A stretch of DNA of 64,000 nucleotides from an uncultured virus (IMG/VR IMGVR_UViG_3300034072_002082) (Duplodnaviria; Heunggongvirae; Uroviricota; Caudoviricetes), in the IMG/VR virus record IMGVR_UViG_3300034072_002082; one strand, 5' to 3'. Position 1 is the first letter of the stretch; each line of letters starts with the position of its first letter. The position numbers and the translations under genes are program-made. Of the stretch, positions 3,224 through 55,390 are shown piece after piece. Below the pieces are notes generated by a model. It saw only the letters and a program-made list of their open reading frames with translations, made no database searches and was not told where the DNA came from.

Positions 3224-3778
3224 TCAGGCGGCCTCGCGCCGGGCTGCGGTGGCCCCGCCGTTGACCTTGGAGGCACGGACCCAGACGATACGGGTCTCGG
3301 TGCGTCCCTTGCCGCAGCGCTGCGTGCGGAAGTAACCCTTGCGGTCGTGGCCCTCGACCTTGCGGCCGGTGGCTTCAGCCTGGCGCTCGGCGTCGCTGCG
3401 CTCGACGACATCAGTCGCAGTGACGATCTCGCCGCCCACGGCGCCGGTCTTGCGATCGACGATCCGCTCACGGTGCGCGATGAGCGTGATGGCCGTGTTC
3501 ACATCGAGGAGATCGCGAGCGAGGGTGTAGGTCTCGCCGTGGATCATGACGGTGCGGACCTGCACCTTGTTGTCGATGATGACCTGGCCGCGGCTGTAGG
3601 CATAGGGGCGGCCGAGCTTGTCCACGCGGTGGTCGACGTCTGCTGGCACGACGACGATCCGCATGTCCGGGCCGATGCGGAAATTGCGGCGTGGCTTGCG
3701 GCTACGGTCCGGGCGAGCACCCTGGTTGGCGCGGGCAGTCGATGCAGGCTTAAGCTTGGCGCGATTGGTCAAAGCCAT
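3224..3778 (-). CDS. OB-fold/SSB-like protein with basic C-terminal extension
   Basis: GRPYAYSRG...VRTVMIHG motif shared with the small OB-like paralogs; C-terminal GHDRKGYFR..RCGKGR..IVWVR; ends EAA. Confidence 0.6.
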   Translation of the reverse strand: MALTNRAKLKPASTARANQGARPDRSRKPRRNFRIGPDMRIVVVPADVDHRVDKLGRPYAYSRGQVIIDNKVQVRTVMIHGETYTLARDLLDVNTAITLIAHRERIVDRKTGAVGGEIVTATDVVERSDAERQAEATGRKVEGHDRKGYFRTQRCGKGRTETRIVWVRASKVNGGATAARREAA

Positions 3779-3863
3779 CTGATTTCGTCCTATGAATCTG
3801 GTATTGCGAGAAGGGACGAAGAACCGGCAGCACCCGGTTACCCGGGTGCTGAATACTTGCTCC

Positions 3864-4250
3864 TCAAAGGGTGATGGGGAGGAAGCGCCACTGGAACCCC
3901 TCCTTGAGCTCGCCGCCGGCCCAGATGGAGTCGATGACGTAGTGGCCGGAGGCATTGGGCTCGCCCCAGCTCAGGACCTTGACGCGCTCGATGTCGGCTT
4001 CGATCTCGTGACGCATATCGCGGGATAAGATGCCGAGGTCGCAGGACAGGTTGTCCGCTTCCATCTTGCGGACGTAGTTGAGCGCTCCCAGCATGTTGTT
4101 GGTGAAGATCTCGTCTTCGCCCTGGCCAGGTTCAATGACATCGAGGTCGATGGGCTCGACGGCCAACGTATCGGCATCACCAAAATTGGTGATTGTGCGG
4201 ACAACCACGAGCACGCCGGCGAGGGCAGGGTTGAGCAGGGCGTCGGACAT
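3864..4250 (-). CDS. hypothetical protein
   Basis: ORF with AGGAAAT RBS, acidic composition. Confidence 0.65.
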   Translation of the reverse strand: MSDALLNPALAGVLVVVRTITNFGDADTLAVEPIDLDVIEPGQGEDEIFTNNMLGALNYVRKMEADNLSCDLGILSRDMRHEIEADIERVKVLSWGEPNASGHYVIDSIWAGGELKEGFQWRFLPITL

Positions 4251-4414
4251 CGCATTTCCTTCCATCATCATCTTCAATGGAAGCTGGCTCGAAACGCGCC
4301 ACTGCGGACGCCCTGTCTATTTGTAGGGCACTTTAGCCTCGGCGCTGGGCCGAGCGCCGCAAAACACCCCGCGTCGGCGGGCCGGCGCGGGGTGATGTGT
4401 TTTGAAACCGAAGC

Positions 4415-4810
4415 TCAATTGCTGAGGACAGCGGCCCTTTGGGCAGGGGTTGCCACGGTGACTTCCGTGGCGACCGTCAGGTCCATGAGATGGCGGCTGG
4501 TGCCATGCGAGCGGATGCGCTTGCGCCGGGCAGTGACGACGACAGCGTCATGGCTGGCAAGCAGAGCGCAGAGCTGCTCGTAGAGGTCGCCAAGCACCAT
4601 GATACCACCGGTGAAGTGGCCGAGGCGGTCACCGTAGACTTGGCGACCGCGCCCAAAGGCATAGGGCTGCGTGCGGCTGAGCAGGAGATGGTCGAAGTCG
4701 CGTGCGGCGATAACGAACTGGCGCGATGGGCCAATGTGCTCGTTCTCGTTTACGGCTGGCGAAACCGCAGGGGCGGTGCGGCGGAACGTGTTGAGGCTGA
4801 GGAACGCCAT
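4415..4810 (-). CDS. hypothetical protein, possible divergent OB-fold
   Basis: TQPYAFGRG...IMVLG...VVVTARRKR resembles 3224..3778; AGGAAAT RBS. Confidence 0.55.
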   Translation of the reverse strand: MAFLSLNTFRRTAPAVSPAVNENEHIGPSRQFVIAARDFDHLLLSRTQPYAFGRGRQVYGDRLGHFTGGIMVLGDLYEQLCALLASHDAVVVTARRKRIRSHGTSRHLMDLTVATEVTVATPAQRAAVLSN

Positions 4811-4853
4811 ATTTCCTATCTCCCAAATGGATCGATGGGAGAGGAAGGCGATC

Positions 4854-4915
4854 TGTCCGGCTTGCCCGGACAAACTTTTTGTCCGTTGTCCGGACTATTT
4901 GTCCGGTTTGTCCGG
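4854..4915. repeat. cluster of (T)TGTCCG(G) short repeats
   Basis: Copies at 4854, 4879, 4886, 4899 and 4908, plus an inverted copy at 4866. Confidence 0.8.
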
Positions 4916-4936
4916 CGAGGGCCGCTAAGCGCGCCC

Positions 4937-5500: not shown

Positions 5501-5657
5501 CCCTGGCGCCCTCTTTGCTTATCGCGGGGTTGTCTGGCTGGTGTGCCTTGCACGCTGATTGGCTGCAGCGCCGTTAACACGGCATTGCGCATCGTGCGAT
5601 GGCCGATCGTGTGGCAGCAAAAGCCCGCCGCGGCTTATGGCCGGGCGGGCGCTGCGA

Positions 5658-6005
5658 TCAGTCTTCGAAGCCGCAGAATAGATCCTGGCCAAGCAGGATC
5701 ACATCCTTCTGCTCGCCCTTTGCGAAGACGGTCAGGCGCGCTGCAAAGCAGGTGCCGTCGTGATCGTCGAAGGAAGCCCTGAGGGCTTCGATCTTCTCGT
5801 CGAGTTCGGCGAGGGTCGCGAAGCTGGCAAACGAGACGTCTCGGAAGCGCAGTTCGTCGACGACATTGCCGGGCAGCGGGTCCATGACAGCGTAGCGCTG
5901 GTCTCCGCCCTGGTTCGAGGTCTCGATCAGCATTGACGGTCCGTGGACCGTGCTCAGGGTGGCGACGAGGACTTCGAGGCTGGCAGCGCGAAGGGTCATG
6001 GTCAT
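5658..6005 (-). CDS. hypothetical protein
   Basis: GAGGAAATG start context; downstream terminator near 5620-5650. Confidence 0.6.
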   Translation of the reverse strand: MTMTLRAASLEVLVATLSTVHGPSMLIETSNQGGDQRYAVMDPLPGNVVDELRFRDVSFASFATLAELDEKIEALRASFDDHDGTCFAARLTVFAKGEQKDVILLGQDLFCGFED

Positions 6006-6093
6006 TTCCTCTATCTCAATTTGATCGCAGCCATCTTGGGGGCGCGTAGGATAGAGGGCGAAGGCCCCGGGCCGGCGGATGCCGGGACGCAGG

Positions 6094-6480: not shown

Positions 6481-6563
6481 AGTATCTCCTTGCGTCCCGA
6501 CATGCCGTTACCGGCAGATAGGACGTTGTAAAGACTGAACTTTCAGTCGGTCGTTCGTGACAG

Positions 6564-8679: not shown

Positions 8680-8994
8680 TCAGCGCGGCTGCGCTGTTCC
8701 GTCCCAGACCAGTGCGACGTTTTCGGGCACGGTCGGCAGGTTGTGGGCGAGAGATTGGATTGCCGCCCACTCGATACCTGCCCACTCGTCAGCCATGGCG
8801 TTGTAACGATCTAGGCTGGCCACGTTCTCGCCCCAGCTTTGCGCAGGATCGATTTCGTGGAAGTCGCAGTATCGCGCGGCGGCGGCGAGGGCTCGGCGCT
8901 GATCTTCTTCGCTGCCCTGCCGCTGGCCCTGCCATTGGAATGAAAAGGTCATGCCGGCAGTATTGGGGCCCATTGCGTCACGCACAAGCCCCAA
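8680..8994 (-). CDS. hypothetical protein
   Basis: ORF filling the gap below the terminator; start uncertain. Confidence 0.45.
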   Translation of the reverse strand: MGLVRDAMGPNTAGMTFSFQWQGQRQGSEEDQRRALAAAARYCDFHEIDPAQSWGENVASLDRYNAMADEWAGIEWAAIQSLAHNLPTVPENVALVWDGTAQPR

Positions 8995-9000
8995 GAACGA

Positions 9001-9036
9001 AACAAACCCCGCCCGGCAGCCGCCGGACGGGGTTTG
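9001..9036 (-). terminator. intrinsic terminator after OB-like gene
   Basis: CAAACCCCG...CGGGGTTTG stem with A-rich flank on +. Confidence 0.75.
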
Positions 9037-9060
9037 AATATGCTGCTTGCCGTCTAGGGC

Positions 9061-9342
9061 TTATGCAGCTGCGGCCTCTGCCGGCGCGGGTTCGCGCGCG
9101 GGGCCGATGATGCGTGCCGTGTTCTTGCCGTCCCACACCGCGGTCACGGTGATCTTCGAGCCCTCGACGATCATGTCTTCGACGGTCTGAAGCACCGGCG
9201 AGAAGGCCATCACGGTGATCTCCTTGTCGCCCTTCTTGAAGTGGGCGGTCGCCTTCTGCGACTTGGCGAAAGGCTGACCTTCGTTCTTGCCCTTGGACAC
9301 GATGCCGTTGTGGATGGCTGCGAGGGTCACGGTGAGCTGCAT
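9061..9342 (-). CDS. small OB-fold/SSB-like protein (paralog A)
   Basis: GQPF...ITVMAF...EGSKITV pattern; AAGGA RBS; ends AEAAAA. Confidence 0.75.
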   Translation of the reverse strand: MQLTVTLAAIHNGIVSKGKNEGQPFAKSQKATAHFKKGDKEITVMAFSPVLQTVEDMIVEGSKITVTAVWDGKNTARIIGPAREPAPAEAAAA

Positions 9343-9460
9343 CTTGAATTCCTTGTGTTGATTTTCATCTCGCTGATCGAGATCGACCCTCCTTCCTGAT
9401 CGAATGCGGGGGTTCGGGCCGAAGGGGCCCGTCAGCGCCTGAAGCGAAAGCGTAGCGCTG
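9343..9460 (-). promoter_or_regulatory. conserved structured leader A
   Basis: mRNA-sense GGGCCCCTTCGGCCC-GAACCCCCGC...ATCTCG/CGAGAT hairpin...GAAAAT...AAGGA; homologous to 11956-12070 and 28524-28625. Confidence 0.75.
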
Positions 9461-9585
9461 CGGATCTCACCGTGGTGGCCGGCTGGTGCCGGCGGTCTGA
9501 ATTTGCGTCAGACATCGTCGGCGGAAACGAGAAACGCCCGCTCCCTGTGTGGGAAGCGGGCGCGACAGATCCTTGGGGTCAAGGG

Positions 9586-9819
9586 TCAGTTCGAGAGAAG
9601 GTCGACCATCTCGTCGACCTCGTGGCGAAGCGTCGCTTCGTCGATGCCGTAGTGGTCGCTCAGGCGCGAGATGCGCGCGTCCACGTCTTCGCCTTCGAGC
9701 ATGTCGGATGCGACCTGGCGCAGAGCTGCGAGGTAAACGTCGTGAGGGTTCGGGACGGCTTCAACAGGCGCGCGGAAGTGCTTGGCAAGTGCGATGGCGA
9801 GCTGGTGCATGGTTTTCAT
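9586..9819 (-). CDS. hypothetical protein
   Basis: 77-aa ORF followed by a terminator at about 9532-9562. Confidence 0.6.
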   Translation of the reverse strand: MKTMHQLAIALAKHFRAPVEAVPNPHDVYLAALRQVASDMLEGEDVDARISRLSDHYGIDEATLRHEVDEMVDLLSN

Positions 9820-9971
9820 CCCTATTTGTGAATTTGGTCAGGGATGACCCAGCTTCGGTGGGGTCTGGGGCCGCTACGGCACCAGTAGAAAAGCGGCTGC
9901 CACCATAGTGGTCGGTCGCTGGATTGCAGGACAATAGGAGTTGTTCTGCACTAGGGTGAACAGGACCGGGT

Positions 9972-10145
9972 TCAGGGAAGAAGCTGCTCCAGCCCGGCGT
10001 GGGCTTCAAGTCTCTCGGTGACATCCAACAGGTCCTCCCAGATGCCATTCTCGGCCGCATCGTCATGCTCGTCAGGATCGGTCGACAGGACGATGAGCGC
10101 CTGGCGCAGCAACTGCTGGGCTTGAATGAAACGTGGTTCAGGCAT
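9972..10145 (-). CDS. small acidic hypothetical protein
   Basis: GGAG RBS before MPEPRF. Confidence 0.5.
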   Translation of the reverse strand: MPEPRFIQAQQLLRQALIVLSTDPDEHDDAAENGIWEDLLDVTERLEAHAGLEQLLP

Positions 10146-10270
10146 GGGCACTCCGGGGCATTGCGCGATCGCTGGCCGGTATGAGGCCAATAGGCAAACC
10201 GTAAACATGTTCTCCCACAAGCAAAGAAAAACCCCGCGAGCACTCGTGAGAGCTCGCGGGGTCTTTGCGT

Positions 10271-10522
10271 TCAGGTCAGAGCCCAGGTGTCGTAGGCGCG
10301 CCGGACATCCCGGCTGAGATCATCGCTGGCTTGCACGATGTCACGAGGGTCAAAGCAGCTCTGCTTGCCTTCGATGTCGAAGATTTCGGAATCGTCGGCA
10401 CCCTCAATGTCGCGCTCGACGACAATGGCGGTCACCCCGGTCAGATCCACGCCATCGCAGAGGATCTTCTCGACCACCCCGCCATCCATCAGGATGACGA
10501 GGCGCTTGGTTGGCGCGGCCAC
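10271..10522 (-). CDS. small acidic hypothetical protein
   Basis: Coupled to the upstream gene; followed by a terminator at about 10227-10262. Confidence 0.65.
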   Translation of the reverse strand: MAAPTKRLVILMDGGVVEKILCDGVDLTGVTAIVVERDIEGADDSEIFDIEGKQSCFDPRDIVQASDDLSRDVRRAYDTWALT

Positions 10523-10524
10523 GG

Positions 10525-11130
10525 TCAGGCGCCCGTGCTGGGGATGCCCCAGCCGATGCCCGGTGCATCCGTGACGTGGCCCGGCAGGATGGCATAGCCC
10601 TCATATCCGGTCTTGCGCCATTCAGCGCGATCGTCAGCGCTGAGGTCTTCTCCAGCGCTTTCCAGGTCGTCGCAGAAGCACTTGAAGGCGGCATCCATGA
10701 CGGCAGCCTGCGTCGGATCGGAGACGGTCACGTGATCGAGACGCTTCGAGCCGTCGCCACCGATGTTGCCCCAGATCACCGTGAAGCGGTGGGCGGCAGG
10801 AGCTGGACCTTCACTTGCCTGTTCGAGAACAATGGCAGCAGCCTCACAGGCCTGTCCAAGGGCAATCAGATCCGTCTTGTTGCTGGTCTCGGCATAGTCG
10901 TTGGCGGCATCGTGCAGGCGTGCCAGCGCCGTCACGAGGGAAGGGGCCTCGCGATAGGGCAGGGGAAGCACGATGGCATGGTGCATCGCATAAGCCTCCT
11001 GCTTATCGACGAAATCTGCATTGCGCTGGTTGAAGCTGGCGACTTCTGCCTTGGCAGCATCGAGCGATGTCTCGACACTTGCAGCAAGATCGCCTTCCAA
11101 CTCAGTGATGACGACGTAGGTCTCGGACAT
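10525..11130 (-). CDS. acidic hypothetical protein
   Basis: 201-aa ORF; AAGGAAA upstream. Confidence 0.65.
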   Translation of the reverse strand: MSETYVVITELEGDLAASVETSLDAAKAEVASFNQRNADFVDKQEAYAMHHAIVLPLPYREAPSLVTALARLHDAANDYAETSNKTDLIALGQACEAAAIVLEQASEGPAPAAHRFTVIWGNIGGDGSKRLDHVTVSDPTQAAVMDAAFKCFCDDLESAGEDLSADDRAEWRKTGYEGYAILPGHVTDAPGIGWGIPSTGA

Positions 11131-11266
11131 TGAGTTCTCACTTTCCTTTGGGTGATCGGATATTCGAAGGCCAAACCAATCTCGGCCGATCTGGCTCAGC
11201 GTTCTGACGCTGGCCAGCAAACCCGGACAGGCGATGCCGCCCGAGGTTCGGTGGTGCCCTGGGAGC

Positions 11267-11542
11267 TTAGGCGGCGAGGGCTAGTGCTGGAGCTTCTTCG
11301 CCTGTCAGGCCGAGGATCTTGCATTCGAACAAGTTTCGAACATGCAATTGGGCATCTAACGTCGCGCCAGTGAAAAGCTTGTCGCCGATTGTTTCAAGCA
11401 CATCGCCAAACGCGAAGGCAATCATCCTCCTGTCGCCGCCCTCAGTATGCAGGACGCTCCCTTTGGCCATGATGTAAGGCGTTCCCGCCGAATTTCCGGT
11501 GGTGATGGTTCCAGTCACGACTTGGCCAAGGGTGATCTTCAT
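11267..11542 (-). CDS. small OB-fold/SSB-like protein (paralog F)
   Basis: MKITLG..TG..TTG..AG.PY..AKGS shared with 11680..11955; ends ALALAA. Confidence 0.75.
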   Translation of the reverse strand: MKITLGQVVTGTITTGNSAGTPYIMAKGSVLHTEGGDRRMIAFAFGDVLETIGDKLFTGATLDAQLHVRNLFECKILGLTGEEAPALALAA

Positions 11543-11620
11543 TCTGAAATTCCTGAAGGATTTCGACTCCCGATAGTTTCGGGTGGTCGGAGGGGTCTGA
11601 GGTTCAGCGCCTCGATGCGC
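11543..11620 (-). promoter_or_regulatory. divergent structured leader F
   Basis: mRNA-sense GAGG...CCTC hairpin-AGACCCC, then CCCGA/TCGGG hairpin, GAAAT, AGGA. Confidence 0.5.
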
Positions 11621-11628
11621 TGGCCAGC

Positions 11629-11661
11629 AAAAACCCCGCTCGGGCAGTGCCAAAGCGGGGT
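11629..11661 (-). terminator. intrinsic terminator
   Basis: AAAAACCCCGC...GCGGGGT on +. Confidence 0.75.
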
Positions 11662-11679
11662 CGCGAGATGCCTTGTGGC

Positions 11680-11955
11680 TTAGGCAGCGATGGCTTCTGC
11701 CGGAGCTTCGACGTCCGCCGGGCCGGCGATGACGATCGAGCCGTCGTCGAAGAACCACTTGACGTCCACCGTCGCGCCGGTGGCAATCATGTCGGCAACC
11801 TTCTCGAGGCCAGCGCCGAATGCCATCACGGTGCGCGTCTTGTCGCCAGCCTTCGGGAAGTGGGCAATGCTGCCCTTCGCCTTCATGTAAGGCTGACCTG
11901 CATTCTTGCCGGTGGTGACGGTGCCAGTTTCGACGGTGCCGAGGGTGATCTTCAT
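11680..11955 (-). CDS. small OB-fold/SSB-like protein (paralog B)
   Basis: GQPYMKAKG...RTVMAFG...TGATVDV; ends AEAIAA. Confidence 0.75.
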   Translation of the reverse strand: MKITLGTVETGTVTTGKNAGQPYMKAKGSIAHFPKAGDKTRTVMAFGAGLEKVADMIATGATVDVKWFFDDGSIVIAGPADVEAPAEAIAA

Positions 11956-12070
11956 CTGTGTAATTCCTTGAAATTTTCCATCCCATGATCGGGATCGACC
12001 CCCTTTCCATGATTGATGCGGGGGTATGGGCCGAAGGGGCCCGACGCGGGCGCGACAGCGCGCTGCGCCT
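11956..12070 (-). promoter_or_regulatory. conserved structured leader B
   Basis: mRNA-sense GGGCCCCTTCGGCCC-ATACCCCCGC...GGGGGTCG-ATCCC/GGGAT hairpin...GAAAAT...AAGGA. Confidence 0.75.
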
Positions 12071-12253
12071 GCCTTGCGCAGGGTGACGGTCTCGGCAGAG
12101 CCGGCTGCCAGGTGAGGTCGCGATATGAGCGATCGCGCCATCCCCTCAGGGATCGCCAGCGATGCGCTGGCGGTGTGGCCTCAGCCCACATGAAAAACCC
12201 GCCGCGCTTTCCAGCGGGCGGGTTCAGGAGCTTTTTGCGATTGGGTTATGCCA

Positions 12254-12793
12254 TCACTGGGAAATGGCCTTCCAGCGGGCCGCTTGCCGGCCGATGGCCT
12301 CTCGCTGCCTGTCGGTCCAGCCAAGCCGATCGAGGAGCGCATCGACTTCGAGTAAAGGTTCTTCAGCCTTCAGAGCACGGGCGTTGTTCCAGCGGACGTT
12401 CTCAGGCGGAGAAAGGGCGATGACGGCCTTCTCCAACCGCTCCAGCTCGGTCTTGCTTGCTCCTGGGATCGGAAGGACGCTTGCGCTACAAAATTGCCGC
12501 GCGAACAGGCGCCGCAACTCCTTCGCCACCTTCCCGGCAACCGGGCAGGACAGCACATCATGGCGCGAGTGATACATCCGGCCGGCATTGTAGGCAGACG
12601 AGTACTTGTGAGAGTTGCCGTCCCCTCCGACATGGCGCCGCAGCCTATCCGCAAAGCCCTTGTCGGTAATCCCGATATGGCGGACCACACCCAAGTAATC
12701 CCTCAGGCCATACATTCCGGTTGAAGCAGGGACCGCGTCGAGGGAAAGCCTCTCCCCATCCAATAGGGAGGCAAGCGCAACCTGTGGATCCAT
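12254..12793 (-). CDS. GIY-YIG-like nuclease
   Basis: GMY...HIG motif pair followed by RLRRH and a downstream ELERLE...WN. Confidence 0.7.
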   Translation of the reverse strand: MDPQVALASLLDGERLSLDAVPASTGMYGLRDYLGVVRHIGITDKGFADRLRRHVGGDGNSHKYSSAYNAGRMYHSRHDVLSCPVAGKVAKELRRLFARQFCSASVLPIPGASKTELERLEKAVIALSPPENVRWNNARALKAEEPLLEVDALLDRLGWTDRQREAIGRQAARWKAISQ

Positions 12794-28053: not shown

Positions 28054-28226
28054 AATCATTCCCCCGGGCCCGCGTTTGCATCCGACGGTCGGGTGCATCT
28101 GCTGCGGGCAGCTGTAATATGACCCCGGGAAATGGCGCGCGCTGCAACTGACCCCCCTAAAAAGCGAAAAAGCACACAAAACCCCGCCGGCGCGGTGCGC
28201 GGGCGGGGTCTGTGTTGATCGGTTGA

Positions 28227-28523
28227 TCAGGCGGCTGCGGCTTCAGCCGCTTCGGTCTCTGCGGCCTTGGGCGCGATGACCAGGAGGACGTTGTCCTTGA
28301 ACACGGCCTTGACCGTGATCTTGCGGCCCTTCTTGAGGCGGCTGGCGATGGCGTCGCGGGCGTCGCCGAATGCCTGGACTGTCAGCTTGCGCGGGTTCTT
28401 CGCGAAGTGGCAGTCAGCGTTTTTCAGGGTGGCGTACTTCCGTCCGGCGTCGGGGCCCGAAGCGATGGTGCCGGTCTTGACGCTCGAAGGGGTGAGGGTG
28501 ACGGTGAAAGGGAACTTGCTCAT
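28227..28523 (-). CDS. small OB-fold/SSB-like protein (paralog C)
   Basis: GRKY...LTVQAFG.ARD.I...LKKGRKITV; ends AEAAAA; terminator at about 28178-28210. Confidence 0.75.
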   Translation of the reverse strand: MSKFPFTVTLTPSSVKTGTIASGPDAGRKYATLKNADCHFAKNPRKLTVQAFGDARDAIASRLKKGRKITVKAVFKDNVLLVIAPKAAETEAAEAAAA

Positions 28524-28625
28524 ATCTGTGTCCTTGTGCTTGATTTTCGTTTGATCGCTCAGATCACATCCCATTCCTGATCGAAAAGCGGGGGTATGGG
28601 CCGAAGGGGCCTGATCGCCGGCCAG
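28524..28625 (-). promoter_or_regulatory. conserved structured leader C
   Basis: mRNA-sense GGCCCCTTCGGCCC-ATACCCCCGC...TCGATCAGGAA...TGATC/GATCA hairpin...GAAAATCAA...AAGGA. Confidence 0.75.
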
Positions 28626-28723
28626 CTCTGCCTGTCCGGCGCGAGGTTGCGTGCAACCTGCTGCGCCAAGCGCATGAAACCCCTGCCAGATGAAACTGGC
28701 AGGGGTCCAAAAGCACTAGAGCT

Positions 28724-30013: not shown

Positions 30014-30163
30014 GATTTCCTCCAGCTAATTTGGATGCACTGGAAGGACGAAATCTTCGGTCAACAAAGTCACTCTTGAATGGATATCATGTGACGCAGA
30101 ACACTACTTTGTAAGATATAGATTGTGATAAATTGTTTACCTCTCGATTCGAGGAGGCTGACA

Positions 30164-31009: not shown

Positions 31010-31045
31010 CTCAGATGTTTCAGTCGAGCAAGGCCGGCTGAAAGC

Positions 31046-31081
31046 AAAAACCCTCGCCTGCGTGCTTGCAGGCGAGGGTTC
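31046..31081. terminator. intrinsic terminator between convergent genes
   Basis: AACCCTCGCCTGC-GTGCTT-GCAGGCGAGGGTT. Confidence 0.8.
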
Positions 31082-31097
31082 TGATTAATCTTCGAGA

Positions 31098-31367
31098 TCA
31101 AGCTGCCTTGGCGGTCTTCGCAGGGCCAAGAATGCGCAGCAGGTTCTTGCCGTCGAACTGGGCGGTGACGGTGACCGTCTTGCCCTTGCGCAGCAACGAG
31201 CGGACGCTGTCGCGGGCCTTGCCGAAGGCCATGACGGTCACGTCTGCCTCGTTGCCGTTCTTGTAGAACGCGCGGGACTCGCGGATCGTCGAGTAGCGCT
31301 GGCCGTTGACGGCGGTCTTGGTTTCAACCGAACCGAGACGCACCTTGAGCTGGATGATGGCTGCCAT
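31098..31367 (-). CDS. small OB-fold/SSB-like protein (paralog D)
   Basis: GQRY...VTVMAFGKARD.V..LLRKGKTVTV..FDGKN..RILGP; ends KAA. Confidence 0.78.
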   Translation of the reverse strand: MAAIIQLKVRLGSVETKTAVNGQRYSTIRESRAFYKNGNEADVTVMAFGKARDSVRSLLRKGKTVTVTAQFDGKNLLRILGPAKTAKAA

Positions 31368-31470
31368 GTTGAAATCGTCCTTTGTCTTGAATTTTCATAT
31401 CCCGGAGTGGGATCGCATTTTGAATTTTCGCGAAACCGGGGTCTGGGGCAGGCGGCCCCTGATCAGCGCG
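31368..31470 (-). promoter_or_regulatory. structured leader D
   Basis: mRNA-sense GGGGC...GCCCC-AGACCCCG...ATCCC/GGGAT hairpin...GAAAATTCAA...AAGGA. Confidence 0.65.
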
Positions 31471-31519
31471 GCTGGCTGCGGTGGTCTGCCCGTCCCTTGC
31501 GCTGCAGGTGACCGGGCTG

Positions 31520-32098
31520 TCAGGCGGCCCAGGCCGAATCCACCGCCGGCGAGAACTCGGGACGAGGCGCCCGGCGGATGCGCATGGTCAGCATGACCGA
31601 CTGCTTGGCTGCATCGATGAGGTCGATGGTCTTCTGCGAGAAGACAACCAGCGGTCCATAGATCGTGGTGAGGCCGCCTTCGTGCGCCTCCACGTTGATC
31701 GTGAGCATACGTCCAGTACGCGAGCGACCCTCGTCAACGTAGGTGACGACGCCGGTGATCAGGCTTGGGATGTCGAGGCCGTGCTTGAAGCTGCGGCGCA
31801 GCGGCTTCTCAGGAGCGGGCTTGGCGCCGCCGAATGGGCCTGCATGGGCCTTGGCAGCAGGCTCCGGCCAGACAAAGGCGGATGCCTCCTGAAAGGCTGC
31901 GAGCGGATTGCGGAGCAGAGCCTCGCTGATGTCGGCAAGCGTCAGGCCATACTTGGCCAGAAGACGCGTGAAGCCACCGAGGGCAGCGATCTGGTCCGAT
32001 CCTTCGGCCAGAGCGAACATGTTCCAGGCTGCAGCGACGCGGCGGTCGTTGAAGGCATCGCGCATGGCGGCTGGGACGTTCTGAGGACGGTCGGTCAT
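31520..32098 (-). CDS. hypothetical protein with possible C-terminal OB-like domain
   Basis: ITGVV...GR...GPLVVF beta-rich C-terminus; ends WAA. Confidence 0.6.
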   Translation of the reverse strand: MTDRPQNVPAAMRDAFNDRRVAAAWNMFALAEGSDQIAALGGFTRLLAKYGLTLADISEALLRNPLAAFQEASAFVWPEPAAKAHAGPFGGAKPAPEKPLRRSFKHGLDIPSLITGVVTYVDEGRSRTGRMLTINVEAHEGGLTTIYGPLVVFSQKTIDLIDAAKQSVMLTMRIRRAPRPEFSPAVDSAWAA

Positions 32099-32206
32099 GC
32101 GCGGGTTTCCTTGAACCATGGGGATTTGCTCGAACCCTTGGGCAAATGGCGCAGCCAAAAACCCCGGCTCCTCTGCAGAGGAGCCGGGGTCTTGATGTGG
32201 GCCCGA

Positions 32207-35086: not shown

Positions 35087-35297
35087 CTGGATCCCTTTCG
35101 TGGAAATGCTAGAATTCGGTCAGCTTTTGAGAGGACCAATGTGTCTCGAGCCTCGTCGGCGAGAGTGCGCACCTGCATGCGAGGCCTGTCGCAAAGGGCG
35201 CGGATCTCCACCGCTGTCTGACCTTGCAAAACAAAAGCCCCGCGCAGCGTGATGCTGCGCGGGGCTCTGTTGTTGCTCGCTCTGGCGAGCCTGGCCG

Positions 35298-35582
35298 TTA
35301 GGCCGCTGCGGCTTCAGCCGGGGCTTCTGCCGGGGCCGGGTCCTTGCGCAGGCCGAGGACGCGGTACGAACCGCCCTGCGGCATGCAGTTCAAGGTCACC
35401 TTGCGGCCCGGCTTGAAGAACTTCTTCACAGCCTCGACGTTTTCCTTGAAAACCATCACCGTGCGCTTTCCGACGACGGTGCCGTCCTTCTTCAGAAGGT
35501 TGCCCTTGCCGACCAGGTAGTCACCTGCCTTCGACGAGTTGCGAGCATGAACTTCGGTGAGCTTGAAAGTGATGTTCGACAT
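35298..35582 (-). CDS. small OB-fold/SSB-like protein (paralog E)
   Basis: AGDY..GKG...KRTVMVF...KPGRKVTL; ends AEAAAA; terminator at about 35233-35265. Confidence 0.72.
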   Translation of the reverse strand: MSNITFKLTEVHARNSSKAGDYLVGKGNLLKKDGTVVGKRTVMVFKENVEAVKKFFKPGRKVTLNCMPQGGSYRVLGLRKDPAPAEAPAEAAAA

Positions 35583-35700
35583 CTTGCTATCTCCTTGTTT
35601 GCAAAGTCAATTTCTTCCCGACTATCGGGAACATAATTTTCACCTGCAGAAGAGGAGGGGAGCACGCTTGCGGGCGTGGGGTGGAACCACCCCGGACCTC
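35583..35700 (-). promoter_or_regulatory. divergent structured leader E
   Basis: mRNA-sense GGGGTGG-TT-CCACCCC-ACGCCCGC...TTCCCGA/TCGGGAA hairpin-GAAATT...AAGGAG. Confidence 0.55.
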
Positions 35701-35840
35701 AGGTGCCTGAGAAATCCCCGCGCGGCTGGTGCTGTCGCGGGTGATCAACTTTGGCCCGCAGCTTGAGCAACAGGCCAAAGAAAAGCCCCGCTCCGGTCAA
35801 ACCGGGCGGGGCTGAAGACGCAAGTTTTGAAGCGGGCGTT

Positions 35841-36638
35841 TTAGGCCGCGTATTGCCCGAATGGACGCCCCGGTTCAGCGGGCTCGGCGCGAAGGTCGAA
35901 GAACTCGCCTGACGGGGCATTGCGGAAGCACTGCGTGTGGGACATCAGTTCCGCAATTGTCAGCCTGCCGGCTTCGGGGTTGTCGTGCCGGACACCTACG
36001 AACGAGCCGGAATCAACGAAAAATACGTTGCCGAGTTGGGTAGGATTTCCAACGATGGTGTGGCCGCAGAAGATGCGGCCAATGCCGCGCACACCCTGGT
36101 TGTCGCGATGTTCGATGCGGCTGCGTCCCCAAAGGGCGGACTTGATGGTCCTCTTGTCGCCAGCTTCGATCGCTTCGATGAAGGTGGGCCAGTCCATGCC
36201 CGGCGGGACTTCACCGTGGACGAGACCGACGAGGCCGCGTGCTGTCTCGATCTCGCGAACGATCGGGAGTTCGCGGAAGGCGAGGATGAATTCCAGCCGC
36301 TCGTCGCACGATAGGCCCATGAACCAGGCCATGCCATTGCGGCTGGTCCAGAAGCGCAGGGCGTCTTCGTCGGGGGTGTCGGTATTCTCGTAAGGCTCCA
36401 TCAGCATGTCTTCATGGTTGCCACGGATCGGGAAGATCGCAGGGTTGCGCATGAAGGCCAGCGCCCGGGGAGATTCAGGACCGCGGTCGACGAGGTCGCC
36501 CACACTGAACAGGCGGTCCCGTCCGAAATCGAAGCCGACGGCGTTCATTGCGGCAGCCACCACCGAGTACGTGCCATGGACGTCGCCGATAACGAAGTCG
36601 CGGCCGGTGAGGTTGGCGGTGTGACGGATGACGCGCAT
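35841..36638 (-). CDS. metallophosphoesterase, PphA/lambda-phosphatase-like
   Basis: GDVHG, GDLVDRGPES, RGNHE, VHG, ALWGR, CGHT and VDSG motifs. Confidence 0.92.
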   Translation of the reverse strand: MRVIRHTANLTGRDFVIGDVHGTYSVVAAAMNAVGFDFGRDRLFSVGDLVDRGPESPRALAFMRNPAIFPIRGNHEDMLMEPYENTDTPDEDALRFWTSRNGMAWFMGLSCDERLEFILAFRELPIVREIETARGLVGLVHGEVPPGMDWPTFIEAIEAGDKRTIKSALWGRSRIEHRDNQGVRGIGRIFCGHTIVGNPTQLGNVFFVDSGSFVGVRHDNPEAGRLTIAELMSHTQCFRNAPSGEFFDLRAEPAEPGRPFGQYAA

Positions 36639-42839: not shown

Positions 42840-43256
42840 CTAAACCTGCGCCTTCACGACGAACTTGGCGCGGAAGTCCGGCAAGGCGCGGAAGAACGTC
42901 TTGCCGATGTCAGGCTCGCAGCGATACTCGACGGCAGGATGCCACTCGTCTTCGAACTGCATCAGGCGGCTCTCGTCCAACTTGATGACGAAGTAATCCT
43001 TGCTCTTGTAGGTGTAGACCTTCCCTGCAAATGGGCCTTGCTCGGGCTGGGTGATTGTCTTGGGAGCAGGCCGCGTGCGCGTGTTCCATTGCTGCACCTG
43101 AATGGGATCATCGAGGAGCACGCTGATTTTGCGATCAGACATCCAGCACTCCTCCGTGTCGCAACGCGCGGCAACGTTGATCTTCCCCCTCGAGCGGGTC
43201 AGATGCACGCCGCAGAACGGGCAGGGTTCAAGCCATACTGGCGGGCGGTCGTTCAT
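42840..43256 (-). CDS. Lar-like zinc-finger domain fused to DUF1653-like domain
   Basis: LEPCPFCG...C...C...QWNTR; C-terminal VYTYK..Y.V...VEYR...FFR...F..KF. Confidence 0.65.
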   Translation of the reverse strand: MNDRPPVWLEPCPFCGVHLTRSRGKINVAARCDTEECWMSDRKISVLLDDPIQVQQWNTRTRPAPKTITQPEQGPFAGKVYTYKSKDYFVIKLDESRLMQFEDEWHPAVEYRCEPDIGKTFFRALPDFRAKFVVKAQV

Positions 43257-43291
43257 GGTGTCTCCGGTCTGCGGTAGAGGGGCGGGCGCCA

Positions 43292-43927
43292 CTATGCCCA
43301 ATAGGCGGTCGTGGCGTTGTTGCGCTGTGCCGCGGCGATGAAGGCGTCGAGACGGCCGGCGCAGTCGGTGCGCCAGCCGTTTTCCTTGACCGCTTCGGCG
43401 AGGGTGGCGATCTCGACCTCGCCGGTCGGGCTCTTGGGGTCACACGAGATGCCGAGTTCGCGCAGCATCTCGAACATCGCGCTGCCGCAGCGGTTGATGG
43501 TGACGTCGTCCCCGCGCCAGTTCACACCCTTGATGTGCGCGGGGCATTCGTCTGTGCCGGACAGCAGGACCTGCAGGCCGAGACGGATGACCAGGTCGAA
43601 CAGGCGTGCAGCCTGCGCGCCGTTCTCGCCGCGGGCAAGACGATCGCGGATCTGGTCCTGTACGATCGTCGGCAGCAGGGCCGGGCCGAACGCAGGGATG
43701 TACGACCCTTGCGAATATTCGTTGTCCTCGTCGCGGGGATAGGAGCTGACCTCCTCACCGTTGAGCAGCGTCACGCCTTCCAGCACACGAGCGATGGAAT
43801 CGACAACGTCTTCCTCGATGAGGATCAGGCCGTGGTTGGGCGCAACAGCGGTGATCTGCGCCCAATCGCTCGCTGCACGAGCTTCCGAGTTCAGTTCGTC
43901 GTTCGAGAAGATGAGGCTGATCGACAT
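43292..43927 (-). CDS. acidic hypothetical protein
   Basis: 211-aa ORF; AGGAAAT RBS. Confidence 0.7.
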   Translation of the reverse strand: MSISLIFSNDELNSEARAASDWAQITAVAPNHGLILIEEDVVDSIARVLEGVTLLNGEEVSSYPRDEDNEYSQGSYIPAFGPALLPTIVQDQIRDRLARGENGAQAARLFDLVIRLGLQVLLSGTDECPAHIKGVNWRGDDVTINRCGSAMFEMLRELGISCDPKSPTGEVEIATLAEAVKENGWRTDCAGRLDAFIAAAQRNNATTAYWA

Positions 43928-45639: not shown

Positions 45640-45810
45640 TCTATGGAATAACGGGTTGATGCTTCAACCCCGCAAACCCAATTGGTTACGCCTGGCAGTT
45701 GCCTGCTTCAGCGCGATTTCGAGACTACGCTCATCCTCAGTCGTGAGACTGTGCAGCCCAGCCTTGCGGATGGCTGCCGGATCACGTTAGCGTCTCAAGG
45801 GCCCTGAACG
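45640..45810 (-). ncRNA. putative TnpB omega/reRNA (boundaries approximate)
   Basis: Structured region overlapping the tnpB 3' end: GAGAC-GCT...AGCGTAGTCTC stem, GCAG-GCAA-CTGC and GGGTTGA-AGCA-TCAACCC hairpins. Confidence 0.55.
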
Positions 45811-47003
45811 GCCCTCGCCAGAATATTTCTGGCCGCATTGTGATCACGATGCAGGACTGCGCCGCACGAGCAGCTGTGCTGCCGTGCACGTATGTTCTTT
45901 GGCACTTTCGTGCCGCAGAAGCTGCAGTTCTGGCTCGTGTTGCGCGGATCAACCAAGCGGAGCTCGCCACCGGCTCTTTCAGCCTTGTAGCGAAGCATAT
46001 CGATCAGACGCCCCGGCGATGCGTCCAGCATCGACCGGTTTAGGCCGCTTTTGGCGGCCACGTTTTTGCCCGGGTTCGCCAAGGTGCCCTTGGCCGACCG
46101 GGTCATGTTCTTGAGCTTGAGATCCTCGACAACGATAACCTCGAAGCGGTTTGCGATGTTCGCGCTTACCTGATGAAGGTGCGTGGTGCGCGTATTCTCG
46201 ATCCGCTGATGGATACGGGCCAGCTTGCGGCGGGCGTGTTGGCGCCGACGAGAATTTCGTTTGCAGCGAGCTAGGGCACGCTGTGCGAGACGCAACTGGC
46301 GCTCGCGAGTATTGCGAGGGCGAGTGTTGGCAAAGACTTCGCCGGTGTCCAAGGTGGCGAGGTTCTCGACACCAACGTCAATGCCAACGGCCGTGCCAGT
46401 CTTTTGGTGCCACTCAGCTGCAGGGATGTCGACGACGAGCGTGACATACCACTTACGATCATAGCGAGTGAATTGCGCAGACTTGAGTTTGGCGCCATCA
46501 GGTATGGGGCGGTGCATGTGCACACGGAGAGCGCCGTCGATACCATTGAAGAACAAGCGGTCATACTTGAACTTGATGCCCGAGAACTCGGCGAAGCCAA
46601 AGGAACGCCAGCGAGATTTTGCACGGAAGCGTGGAAATCCGGCAGCCTTGCCTGTATTAGCGCGTTGGAAGAAGCCTTTGAACGCGCCCTCCACACGCTT
46701 CAGGGTCCAGCGGCCCATATTTAGGGGCTTTGCTCCCTGTCCCAGCGGGTCAACACAGCGGATCTCCGTCAGTGACTTGCACTGATCCATGTAGCCGATA
46801 GCGCCGCCACGTGGGGTCGTGAAATCTTCGGTCACTGGCTTTTGGCGCCCAGCGACCAGAGCGCGACGCTTGGCAACTTTGTAGCTGTCAATGCGCTCTT
46901 GAAGAGCCGCATTATACAGTTGCCTCTGGCCTTCACAAAGCTCGGCCAACCGCGCATATTGGGCGCGTGTAGGCTTCAGCTTGTAGCGAAGGCTAACCAA
47001 CAT
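45795..47003 (-). CDS. tnpB: RNA-guided endonuclease TnpB (IS200/IS605 family)
   Basis: YKLKPT..Q, LYNAALQER, GFPRFR, RuvC motifs VGIDVG / VVEDL / RDHNAARNIL, zinc ribbon CSFCG..CSCG. Confidence 0.95.
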   Translation of the reverse strand: MLVSLRYKLKPTRAQYARLAELCEGQRQLYNAALQERIDSYKVAKRRALVAGRQKPVTEDFTTPRGGAIGYMDQCKSLTEIRCVDPLGQGAKPLNMGRWTLKRVEGAFKGFFQRANTGKAAGFPRFRAKSRWRSFGFAEFSGIKFKYDRLFFNGIDGALRVHMHRPIPDGAKLKSAQFTRYDRKWYVTLVVDIPAAEWHQKTGTAVGIDVGVENLATLDTGEVFANTRPRNTRERQLRLAQRALARCKRNSRRRQHARRKLARIHQRIENTRTTHLHQVSANIANRFEVIVVEDLKLKNMTRSAKGTLANPGKNVAAKSGLNRSMLDASPGRLIDMLRYKAERAGGELRLVDPRNTSQNCSFCGTKVPKNIRARQHSCSCGAVLHRDHNAARNILARAVQGP

Positions 47004-47911: not shown

Positions 47912-47947
47912 TGGTCTAGGTCCTCGATGGGAGCAGGTGAGCGATTG

Positions 47948-51698: not shown

Positions 51699-51852
51699 TC
51701 CTTGGGGTTGCTGCGTCTGCAGCAGGTCGTCAGGCCCACGACGATGTGATGTTCGGGTCGTCGCAGGCGATTAGTGCTTTGCGATGACCCATTTTAGTCG
51801 GTAGGTACCCATGGTGCCGATTGCTCCTTGGCAAGGGGTGAAGGTGGTTTGA

Positions 51853-52062: not shown

Positions 52063-52093
52063 GTCAGGTCTCCTAGTGTGCTGGTGTTTCCGG

Positions 52094-53206: not shown

Positions 53207-53256
53207 GGGAGGTTCCTTGAAATGTTTGGCTTGGACGAGGGTGCTAAGAAGGCCGG

Positions 53257-53484
53257 TCAGGTGATGATCAGGCTCTCACCCTGCTCGTTGTAGAAGATAG
53301 CTTTGCCGTCGGCGCGATGGCACTCTTCGATATATTCGCGCTCGATCTGCTCGTCACCGTCGGGATCGAGGTAATAGACGGCCGAGCCTGCGAAGAGAAC
53401 GTCGAGGGCCTCGCTGATGCTTGGCGTGGTGTAGCAGCCATGGTCGTTGCGGCTGAGGTCTTGGGCCTGGACGATGACGGTCAT
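53257..53484 (-). CDS. small acidic hypothetical protein
   Basis: GAGGAAAACCCC-ATG. Confidence 0.65.
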   Translation of the reverse strand: MTVIVQAQDLSRNDHGCYTTPSISEALDVLFAGSAVYYLDPDGDEQIEREYIEECHRADGKAIFYNEQGESLIIT

Positions 53485-53724
53485 GGGGTTTTCCTCTCCG
53501 ATTCGTGGATCGAAAACCTCCCAGAATCCATTTTCAGCAGGTTTTCCTGCCCTGACGCGCTTTATCGCGGAAAAAAGATGTACGCCATATCAATGGCTTA
53601 GTCATATGATGGCACGAACCGTTACGATTCGTGTTGAAACATCACGGTCCATCACATAACACCGTCTTACAGCGAAGACGGGGCAACAACGCAGCCGTTA
53701 TACCTGAACACCTAGGAGTTTCCA

Positions 53725-54216
53725 ATGGTCAACGACGGCATCTTTATTAGCGCGACGACGTTCCGCGAACTTGCGCCTGCAACGCAGGCCGATATCCTCG
53801 CCAGGCTTGCCGGGGAAACCATTGGCTCCAAGCAGGCACAGTCAGCAGGCGAGGGTGAAGCTGAATCCGAAACCGATGAGGACTTTGCAGAGCTGAGCCC
53901 GACGCAGGCGCGCGAATTTCTGTCTGGATGCGGCGAGCGGACCCGTAAGATGATCCAGCTGATCGCAGAAGGCGACAGTCGCCACTTCCAGTTGGCTGAT
54001 CTTGCCGTGGGCATGGGCTGCAAGCCCGGCGATCTGCGCGGCGTCTGGAGTGGCCTGACCCGCCGCCTCTATACGATCCTCGGCAACACCGACGCCTATC
54101 TCATCGACTGGGCATCAGAAGCCGTGCTGGGCGAGGAGGGCGAATATCTCGATCATGCGGGCGAGGTCACCGAGATGACCTATCAGAGCTTCCGTAAGGT
54201 GCTCAAGTTGGCCTGA
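53725..54216 (+). CDS. hypothetical protein, possible winged-helix
   Basis: AGGAG RBS; LADLA..MG....DLRGVWSGLTRR. Confidence 0.65.
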   Translation: MVNDGIFISATTFRELAPATQADILARLAGETIGSKQAQSAGEGEAESETDEDFAELSPTQAREFLSGCGERTRKMIQLIAEGDSRHFQLADLAVGMGCKPGDLRGVWSGLTRRLYTILGNTDAYLIDWASEAVLGEEGEYLDHAGEVTEMTYQSFRKVLKLA

Positions 54217-54331
54217 CACCAGCTACATCGAGGCAACGCTAGGGGCGGGAAGGAATTTCCGCCCCATTTGCGTGGGCGCAAAGAAAAAGCCGGGAGCACC
54301 CTGATCATGGGCGCTCCCGGCTTTGGGCAAG

Positions 54332-54976
54332 TCACAGGAAATCGTGCAGTTGGCGACTGCCGCGCGGGGCGAAGGTAGATGGCCTTGGCTTGATCTTGAA
54401 CCGCTTGGGCGCCTTGCCGCGCGGCTTTGGTGCCGAAGCTGGTGCCGCTGCCCGTGTTTGGGCCTGCAGGCGCTGGCTCATGCCATGGCGGCGCCAGACG
54501 TTGGGATGGATCGGCCGGCTGGCACCGCGCTTCCACAGGCCCCGTCCCAGCAGGCGTGCCGGGATGTGGAGGGCCCAGGTCAAGGGCGATGCTGGCCAAG
54601 CTGCGCCTGCCAGGACCATGCGCCACGAGACTGGGCCACGAAGGGTGATCACCCAGCACAGCCAGCGGCCGTAGCGATCGGCGCCGAATGGAATGAACAG
54701 CGCGCGCCGATCGCCGAGCATACTCACAAGCACGCTGCGGGCATCCTTGCCGTAGTCCTGAGTGTATTCAGGAGCATCGATGCCGCGAATGCGGATGCGG
54801 TAGGAGCGTAGCCACGCCTTGCTCTCGACGCTGTCGCCATCGGCGAAGTGGCTGACGGTACCAATCCACGGCAGACCGACGGACTTGGCGAGGATGACGA
54901 GGAAGGCGAGGGCCGCCAGCGCCGGGACGGCGATAGTAAGCGGGCTGCCGACGAGGCTGTTGAGCGCTGCGAGCAT
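54332..54976 (-). CDS. thermonuclease (SNase) family protein, membrane-anchored
   Basis: DGDS, IRIRGIDAPE..Q.YG, DRYGR and MV.AG.AW motifs. Confidence 0.88.
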   Translation of the reverse strand: MLAALNSLVGSPLTIAVPALAALAFLVILAKSVGLPWIGTVSHFADGDSVESKAWLRSYRIRIRGIDAPEYTQDYGKDARSVLVSMLGDRRALFIPFGADRYGRWLCWVITLRGPVSWRMVLAGAAWPASPLTWALHIPARLLGRGLWKRGASRPIHPNVWRRHGMSQRLQAQTRAAAPASAPKPRGKAPKRFKIKPRPSTFAPRGSRQLHDFL

Positions 54977-54979
54977 GGC

Positions 54980-55390
54980 TCAGGCAGCCTTGCGCCACTC
55001 GTTGCCACGTTCATCACGCAGGGTCTCGCCCTCGTAGATGGCAACGACCTTGAGCATGCCGCGCTCACGCACAGCCATGCCCTTGACCAGGCGGTCGCGC
55101 TTCATGGCATCGGCGATCTTGCCGAAAGCCACGACGACCGGCTGGCCGCCTTCGGCGAACGAGACGTAAGGCTGGCCGCCGGCGGTGCGACCTTCTTTCA
55201 TCGATGCCGACTGGAAGTCGATGTGGACAGACTGCGGAGCTGCTGCGGTGGTCGCCGCGCGCGCCGGGGTCTGCGCAACAGCCGATGACTTGCCTCCAGC
55301 GGCAACTGGCTTGGTGACGGCTTCACCTGCGGCCTTACGACGGGCGATCGCACGGGCGATAGCGAAGCGCTGAGCGTTGGAACGGGCCAT
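54980..55390 (-). CDS. hypothetical protein: RFAIARAIA N-terminus plus OB-like C-terminus
   Basis: GQPYV...VVAFGKIAD motif shared with the OB-like paralogs; ends RKAA. Confidence 0.65.
   Translation of the reverse strand: MARSNAQRFAIARAIARRKAAGEAVTKPVAAGGKSSAVAQTPARAATTAAAPQSVHIDFQSASMKEGRTAGGQPYVSFAEGGQPVVVAFGKIADAMKRDRLVKGMAVRERGMLKVVAIYEGETLRDERGNEWRKAA

Follow-up and report, generated by a model that had tools for sequence, protein, structure and literature searches.

The window analysed here is a stretch of 64,000 nucleotides (nt) recorded as an uncultured virus of the Caudoviricetes (IMG/VR IMGVR_UViG_3300034072_002082). It is a section of an 80,206-nt metagenome contig, has ~61% G+C, and carries almost every gene on the minus strand. 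Dispersed along it are six small paralogous genes whose products, together with their relatives, are predicted to constitute an unnamed, rare family of minimal single-domain oligonucleotide/oligosaccharide-binding (OB) proteins, of the structural type of SSB (the protein that binds single-stranded DNA) and PriB. Most copies are cassettes composed of a ~95-nt leader, an open reading frame (ORF) and an intrinsic terminator. The leader, whose hairpins covary, is linked to genes of this family, and the genes themselves are found in multiple copies on related elements and are under purifying selection.

Six Paralogs Are Carried in Leader-ORF-Terminator Cassettes

An initial annotation of the window, made without database searches, had proposed six paralogous ORFs of ~90 amino acids (aa), and all six were present on the minus strand at the stop coordinates it gave, by which the genes are designated here. 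When aligned over their full length, the core paralogs showed 28-49% identity to 11680, and a family hidden Markov model (HMM) matched five of the ORFs with E values of 1.9e-29 to 5.3e-38 and 35298 with an E value of 2.9e-26; the mutual homology of the six is thus borne out by both the alignment and the HMM. The cassettes, with their coding sequences (CDS), are as follows.

9003..9434, minus strand: cassette 1, leader 9340-9434 (86.6 bits, E 5e-20), CDS 9061-9342 (93 aa, ending AEAAAA; HMM E 5.3e-38), terminator 9003-9036
11267..11617, minus strand: cassette 2, degenerate leader 11540-11617, CDS 11267-11542 (91 aa, ending ALALAA; HMM E 1.9e-29)
11628..12046, minus strand: cassette 3, adjacent to cassette 2 as a tandem pair, leader 11953-12046 (71.4 bits, E 3.6e-16), CDS 11680-11955 (91 aa; HMM E 2.4e-35), terminator ~11628-11662 (terminator fold found)
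28170..28616, minus strand: cassette 4, leader 28521-28616 (70.3 bits), CDS 28227-28523 (98 aa; HMM E 8.4e-33), terminator ~28170-28215 (z-score -4.76)
31042..31463, minus strand: cassette 5, leader 31365-31463 (56.1 bits, E 2.5e-12), CDS 31098-31367 (89 aa, ending AKAA; HMM E 3.2e-32), terminator ~31042-31082
35234..35676, minus strand: cassette 6, divergent leader 35580-35676 (E 0.011, retaining the second hairpin and GAAA), CDS 35298-35582 (94 aa), terminator 35234-35268

The sequence motifs originally quoted for the paralogs held in most copies, but were altered in 9061 (TVMAFS), 35298 (TVMVFK) and 11267 (IAFAFG, GATLDA). Similarly, the proposal that the genes have their own leaders and terminators stood for most of them: the leader was strong in four of the six (E 5e-20 to 2.5e-12), but weak in 35298 and marginal in 11267, and a terminator, consisting of a hairpin followed by a U-run, was clear in five but weak for 11267. 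The five are 9061, 11680, 28227, 31098 and 35298, and the same arrangement follows a more distant relative, 4415, described below. Because 11267 combines a leader E value of only 4.1, a 3' hairpin with a poor U-run, the longest branch in the family tree (1.32), and a G+C content at third codon positions (GC3) of 0.63, which exceeds that of just 1 of 61 other genes, this copy is probably decaying.

The Predicted Fold Is of the SSB/PriB Type

The 11680 protein was modelled with AlphaFold2 (AF2) from a 22-sequence alignment. The model (predicted local distance difference test, pLDDT, 80.5; predicted template modelling score, pTM, 0.65) is an OB barrel of five strands and a helix, with the last ~10 residues disordered, and its secondary structure as assigned by DSSP (E2-4, E7-12, E22-33, E37-46, H47-56, E62-70, E73-79) follows the SSB-type OB topology of strands 1-2-3, helix, and strands 4-5. 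A Foldseek search of the PDB with this model returned nothing at E<=0.001; the list was headed by SSB and PriB chains, the best being 3koj (E 0.01, template modelling score 0.5). In an exhaustive structure alignment against 48,161 representative PDB chains, the SSB domain 3koj scored highest (Z 8.7, root-mean-square deviation 2.6, 76 aligned), ahead of the PriB proteins of Ralstonia (4fdb, Z 8.2) and Bordetella (3fhw, Z 7.9), and nearly all of the top 50 chains were nucleic-acid-binding OB folds (SSB, PriB, RPA, polymerase OB domains, and HIN). Phage SSBs came first among BFVD viral structures searched with Foldseek, at E 0.011 and weaker, and in a protein-language-model Atlas the clusters nearest to 31098 were named SSB (score 0.93). 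The SSB/PriB-like OB fold that had been read from the sequence pattern is therefore borne out by the AF2 model, Foldseek, and the exhaustive alignment.

Known sequence families did not account for these proteins. None of 85 short relatives matched PF00436, the SSB family, at E<=0.01, and none of the 85 scored above any Pfam cut-off; PHROGs gave one weak match only, to a family of unknown function. No Pfam, NCBIfam or PHROG family or Rfam motif was reached at cut-off, and no description of the OB family or its leader was found in the literature searched, in agreement with the earlier impression that this is not a described system. Canonical SSB has a disordered linker that ends in an acidic-hydrophobic tip of the DDDIPF type. 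The lack of such a tip, also noted earlier, was upheld, since the tails of the family are 10-17 residues long, rich in Ala, Glu and Pro, and mostly end in AA or EG.

OB folds bind RNA as readily as DNA, and this general property suits a different reading, in which the proteins are small RNA chaperones or translational regulators rather than ssDNA (single-stranded DNA) coats, with the leader as their main target. The existence of several paralogous single-gene units, each with a long conserved 5' leader and its own terminator, recalls multi-copy cold-shock genes, and RNA-related genes lie nearby: a CCA-adding/poly(A) polymerase and RNase H in the window, and RNA ligases, macro and NADAR domains and arfA in a gene array of an Erythrobacter aureus plasmid (see below). 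However, the top structural matches were to SSB and PriB and not to cold-shock domains, strands 3 and 4 of the 11680 model are separated by a 10-residue helix, unlike those of the cold-shock barrel, and none of the ten window proteins searched matched the cold-shock domain PF00313 at E<=1. We consider a primarily RNA-directed role unlikely.

A Candidate Cis-Regulatory Motif Precedes the Family Genes

The 5' part of the leader contains a 5-bp hairpin with the loop CCTTC (GGRCC-CCTTC-GGYCC), then R-ACCCC(C)GC and a variable stretch of ~25 nt; the 3' part contains a second 5-bp hairpin (TCCCG-loop-CGGGA), an invariant GAAA, and an A-rich stretch with AAGGA, a strong ribosome site, that leads to the ATG. 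The second hairpin sits 25-30 nt before the start codon and its loop varies from 2 to 6 nt. By a hand count from the leaders, the A-rich ribosome-site stretch has ~31% G+C, compared with ~61% in the window. A covariance model was made from re-aligned leaders, with the two hairpins, supplied by hand, as its only structure; an ACCCC/GGGG pairing in the middle, seen in some leaders only, was excluded. At E<=1 this model gave 26 matches in the window and 16 loci containing relatives (251 kb), three in a further 150 kb of the E. aureus plasmid, of which the 100 kb devoid of family genes yielded none, and seven in 24 kb of Sphingosinicella plasmid p1. All but one of these 36 matches, from ~426 kb searched, run up to the start codon of a family member (35 of 36). 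The odd one out (window 5997-6073, minus strand, E 0.01-0.04) lies before an unrelated 113-aa ORF, 5661-5999, which was examined and rejected as a family relative; its hairpin, GGGGC-CTTCG-CCC, resembles the first leader hairpin.

In the leader alignment, 91.9% of cells pair, and compensatory changes were detected at 6 of the 10 pairs (31 cells), figures that are biased towards structure by the fitting of the alignment to the model. The covariation was not reached in any of 500 shuffles, and slid controls gave 1 to 5 such cells. Near-identical proteins of the same contig have leaders in which the stem sequences differ while loop and flanks are the same. The window contains three instances of the pattern TCCC-N4-8-GGGA-N0-3-GAAA, all of them preceding family genes, where 0.16 would be expected by chance, and two sites with this pattern were seen away from family genes in locus L017 of the E. 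aureus plasmid. A search of Rfam with the leaders gave nothing at the gathering score and six matches at E<=1, none of which overlapped a leader. These results suggest that the leader is a candidate cis-regulatory motif, absent from Rfam and tightly linked to the OB family. The idea that each protein recognizes its own leader was not sustained: there is one common leader motif, not private to each paralog.

Copies of the same contig resemble each other at the DNA level only within the unit bounded by the first hairpin and the terminator, with unrelated sequence on either side. Since this similarity starts exactly at the first hairpin and no sigma-70-type promoter was found upstream, some of the leader could be DNA of a promoter or operator. 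Taken to its limit, the palindromes would serve a regulator or sigma factor encoded by the element, as its operators or promoter elements, with the transcript starting inside or after them. Both hairpins are perfect short palindromes, so paired changes in half-sites would mimic covariation, and the overall folding energy of the leader is unexceptional. On the other hand, pairing in the second hairpin is kept while its loop varies in length, which a dimeric operator would hardly tolerate, and its position, followed by GAAA and the ribosome site, fits a 5' untranslated region. We assign this DNA-level alternative a low probability. Some leaders are preceded by a TGGCA box that looks sigma-54-like, but inspection by eye showed its spacing to be unfit and it was dropped.

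Divergent Relatives in the Window

Longer relatives had been suggested at 3224, 4415 and 54980, and possibly at 31520. The first three were retained, with different degrees of support.

3224..3778, minus strand: 184 aa, ending REAA, extended at the C-terminus and carrying an insertion that separates the last two strands
4360..4810, minus strand: the 4415 unit, CDS 4415-4810 (131 aa, ending LSN), terminator ~4360-4394
54980..55390, minus strand: 136 aa, ending RKAA, with an N-terminal helix, a disordered linker, and an OB domain at ~50-125

A broad family HMM (101 sequences) matched 3224 with E 2.5e-7 over ORF residues 100-167, and 4415 was connected to 3224 by BLASTP (E 7e-12, 29% identity over 114 aa), so these two proposals stood. 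The 3224 gene had no match to the leader model at E<=10 and no terminator; 4415 is followed by a hairpin and U-run. Together, 3224 and 4415 make up a second, more distant adjacent pair. For 54980 the outcome was mixed. Its AF2 model (pLDDT 88-91 over residues 50-130) has the order four strands, helix, two strands, with the same strand-helix order and the same top PDB matches as the family (PriB 4fdb, Z 6.8; SSBs 2vw9 and 3koj, Z 6.4), but its sequence link to the family by hhalign was not significant (probability 36% with the single sequence, 11% with the six-sequence profile). We accept it as a probable relative on the grounds of predicted fold and motif. It lacks its own terminator, and the next gene (54332-54976) belongs to the SNase family. 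The ORF at 31520-32098 gave an hhalign probability of 1.3%, and the suggestion that it belongs to the family was rejected.

Copies Are Maintained on Sphingomonadales Elements

The family is rare. Only 22 proteins, including the six from the window itself, were found at E<=1e-3 in 5.8 billion clusters, and a search of 1.84 billion representatives gave 105 clusters at E<=1e-3, a list that includes some false positives in the form of long repetitive proteins, and 22 at E<=1e-10. Named carriers were Sphingomonadales plasmids only. The E. aureus YH-07 plasmid (NZ_CP031358.1) has nine copies, all on the minus strand, at 141-203 kb; Sphingosinicella sp. BN140058 p1 (NZ_CP035502.1) has 11 matches, also all on the minus strand; and a 206,822-nt metagenome contig has nine copies on one strand in the ~80 kb sampled. 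The survey of copy number in related replicons that the initial annotation had recommended therefore revealed that multi-copy, same-strand expansion is conserved. Tandem pairs are common: 11267 with 11680 and 3224 with 4415 in the window, and three pairs on the E. aureus plasmid. Pattern scans found no relatives in GTDB representative genomes (two scans) or in viral contigs, results that depend on the pattern and leave absence unproven. Neither tblastn of a phage collection nor blastn of window positions 9000-12300 against plasmids gave a match.

Variants of the basic architecture were also seen. Novosphingobium sp. BL-8H encodes a protein with two OB domains (WP_395334338.1, 229 aa; P0024 in our set), and P0025 is likewise a two-domain fusion with two OB stretches. 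Other relatives, listed with the fusions, have an acidic C-terminal extension of ~100 aa (P0040, P0053, and L017:16025-16687). On Sphingosinicella p1 (L020), two annotated family genes share one accession, WP_129392925.1, and are identical copies, and five family matches have one common score.

In a maximum-likelihood tree (54 rows), a single clade held all nine copies from E. aureus along with a few metagenome rows, and eight of the copies from the 206-kb contig grouped together, with the ninth elsewhere. The six copies of the window were spread over at least three clades, cassette 6 (35298) forming a separate subfamily with P0021, L009_5176, L014 and P0022, a clade that takes in that ninth copy. 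This pattern implies old subfamilies plus expansions within single elements. Copies on the same contig encode almost identical proteins and differ at silent sites (median dS 0.31, dN 0.042), and dN/dS is ~0.15 across all 105 pairs. Low dN at a dS of 0.31 indicates that the copies have been maintained and are not recent duplicates.

Charge, Codon Use and C-Terminal Ala-Ala

Most members have an OB core of ~80 residues with an isoelectric point (pI) of 10-11 and a net charge of +9 to +12, followed by an acidic Ala/Glu/Pro tail. In the window, the cores of 28227 (pI 10.5), 31098 and 35298 are strongly basic and that of 9061 is mildly basic. GC3 in 9061 (0.862), 28227 and 31098 (0.867, the window maximum) is higher than in all 61 other minus-strand genes, and in 11680 and 35298 higher than in 54 of the 61, values that would be compatible with high expression.

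All six core paralogs end in Ala-Ala, as the initial annotation had observed, but the ending is not specific to the family: it is found in 16 of the 82 called genes of the window, compared with 12 of 524 other stop-to-stop ORFs (Fisher p 2.6e-8), and is encoded by mixed Ala codons. The family has 90 proteins of <=140 aa, among which AA is the ending of 58 and EG of 9. Parts of the E. aureus array gave 13 of 59, 14 of 69, and 6 of 17 genes with AA endings, and a flagellar part gave 4 of 33; the comparisons were with window ORFs and parts of the E. aureus plasmid. The tail of 11267, ALALAA, is the most ssrA-like. In Escherichia coli, ssrA-like ClpXP degrons require Ala-Ala at the terminus, although these residues do not suffice (PMC10862746). 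The element-wide AA endings may represent ClpXP-type tagging.

The Cassettes Lie in Long Co-Oriented Gene Arrays

The cassettes are located in very long co-oriented arrays of Sphingomonadales megaplasmid-like elements. The array of the E. aureus plasmid runs from ~27.5 kb to beyond 280 kb. These arrays are rich in genes for nucleic-acid repair and modification and in anti-defence-like genes, the recognizable ones being as follows.

Window, DNA repair and helicase genes: photolyase, ERCC4 nuclease, SNF2 helicase
Window, nucleotide and RNA genes: two metallophosphoesterases, CCA-adding/poly(A) polymerase, RNase H, SNase-family nuclease
Window, other genes: DsbA, Lar-like protein, TnpB
E. aureus array, nucleotide metabolism: thyA, DHFR, MazG, NUDIX, dGTPase
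E. aureus array, DNA-related genes: several methyltransferases, strawberry-notch-like helicase, ParB-N protein, AlkB, recA, HU
E. aureus array, further genes: RNase H, macro and NADAR domains, RNA ligases, RES-Xre pair

Homologues of the window's SNF2 helicase (~26% identity) had uninformative gene contexts. TnpB (45795-47003) is of the IS605 type, with OrfB_IS605 and Cas12f1-like TNB domains, and the Lar-family restriction-alleviation match (42840-43301) is weak, its E value of 4e-4 falling under the cut-off. Between 38000 and 40700, G+C drops to 0.55 and the minus-strand array is interrupted: some ORFs there are on the plus strand, and ~1 kb has no called gene. The E. aureus array carries clpX beside an OB-family copy (L017:8389-9648, equal to NZ_CP031358.1 188388-189647), and also encodes two SocA-family proteins and arfA.

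The leading regions of conjugative plasmids carry SSB genes on one strand, among anti-defence genes and often after a structured promoter (PMC11541004). By analogy with that account, the gene content of the E. aureus array appears to resemble the establishment and anti-defence sets of such regions. The resemblance also bears on the suggestion that the proteins are counter-defence decoys, which would mimic or replace host SSB against systems that sense foreign ssDNA or SSBs and would have diversified in an arms race. Consistent with this suggestion, the window has a Lar-like gene, the E. aureus array has methyltransferases, macro and NADAR domains and dGTPase, leading-region SSB genes keep similar company (PMC11541004), and the window copies are diverse, belonging to at least three clades. 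However, the proteins of any one contig are kept near-identical, which fits dosage better than diversifying selection, and no defence target was identified. We regard decoys as very improbable.

A Distributed Supply of Single-Strand Binding Protein?

We favour the explanation that the family is an abundant single-strand nucleic-acid binder produced from dispersed, leader-controlled cassettes, a proposal to which we give about even chances; its binding, autoregulation and ClpXP turnover are the parts that we infer. The OB protein would be made in large amounts and would coat the element's single-stranded nucleic acid, either ssDNA arising from entry or replication, or RNA. Surplus free protein would then bind the unpaired A-rich ribosome-site stretch beside the hairpins and shut off its own translation, in the manner of T4 gp32, and the Ala-Ala C-terminus could make the protein a short-lived substrate of the ClpXP type.

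Several observations weigh against this explanation. Structural Z scores of 8-9 are no proof of kinship, since small barrels can score close to this without being related. The best PF00436 scores were 14.2 bits (31098) and 12.2 bits (28227), compared with a cut-off of 26, the other eight window proteins being unmatched; NCBIfam, its PriB models included, gave no family for the ten proteins at E<=0.01; and PDB profile matches to SsbB reached only E 0.65. Two of the core proteins, 11267 and 11680, are near-neutral or acidic overall (pI 5.5-5.7), and outside the window EG takes the place of AA at the end of many copies. Pairing is inconsistent in the middle of the leader, whole-leader folding energy is like that of shuffles (z -2.25 to +1.86), and no sigma-70-like promoter was found in 8900-12400 or on the minus strand of 28000-36000. 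A tblastn search of the window and of loci L001-L016 detected no clpX. In PLSDB the E. aureus plasmid is classed as non-mobilizable, and the arrays are no more than candidates for conjugative leading regions; Sphingosinicella p1 is classed there as MOBQ mobilizable.

An extended form of the favoured explanation, which we consider a long shot, is that the cassettes constitute a distributed, self-limiting supply of coat protein for a long array that enters or replicates as ssDNA. Every cassette would contribute a dose of coat protein once it became expressible, and all copies would be silenced together through an RNA operator peculiar to the family, made up of a hairpin with a CCUUC loop, ACCCC, a further hairpin, and GAAA. 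Ala-Ala ends on a fifth of the array genes would set a ClpXP timer on the early proteome, which the element's own clpX might reinforce on at least one such plasmid. If true, this would represent a new class of riboregulator and a new logic of megaplasmid establishment.

What is new here is an unnamed OB-fold family together with a candidate cis-regulatory motif that Rfam lacks and that is linked to the family in 35 of 36 matches. The organization, with 6 to 11 same-strand copies per element, is unusual and may explain how very large plasmids handle single-stranded nucleic acid or achieve early expression. From the occurrence of Ala-Ala endings across the element, its proteins may be unstable by design, which would be of general interest if confirmed for a mobile element. 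Two carriers, Erythrobacter aureus YH-07 and Sphingosinicella sp. BN140058, are cultured, making these ideas directly testable.

Comparison with Known Systems

Among small non-canonical OB proteins of conjugative elements, PrgE of pCF10 and the OB-fold pair of ICESt3 are similar in kind, but these are Gram-positive, single-copy, and located in transfer operons (PMC11137577, PMC12614216); neither showed a sequence relation to the family in any search made. Like the leading-region SSB genes described in PMC11541004, the family genes stand in a co-oriented array of establishment-type genes. The same source describes Frpo/ssi as a long imperfect hairpin that rebuilds -35 and -10 boxes (PMC11541004). 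Unlike Frpo, the element upstream of the family genes consists of two hairpins with 5-bp stems, and no promoter-like sites were found in the two regions scanned, 8900-12400 and the minus strand of 28000-36000.

The proteins share with SSB (PF00436) an OB barrel in which a helix separates strands 3 and 4, and a basic core with a flexible acidic tail. They differ from it in having a core of ~80 residues with short loops and no PF00436 match above the cut-off, in lacking a DDDIPF-type tip, the tail ending instead in AA or EG, and in occurring in 6 to 11 copies per element, not one. In size and build they also approach PriB, being ~100 aa with a single OB domain and no long linker, and 4fdb was the second-best structural match. 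The PriB gene is part of a ribosomal-protein operon, whereas the family genes are multi-copy, plasmid-borne, stand-alone cassettes, and their products match no PriB model in NCBIfam or Pfam.

T4 gp32 is a single-strand binder that represses its own translation at the mRNA. The family has no homology to gp32 and its leaders show no pseudoknot, and autoregulation would here be a hypothesis only. Read from the leader sequences, the anatomy would fit a gp32-type operator, in which a structured 5' element, the hairpin with its invariant GAAA, is followed by a putatively unpaired A-rich ribosome-binding stretch that has AAGGA and a low G+C content.

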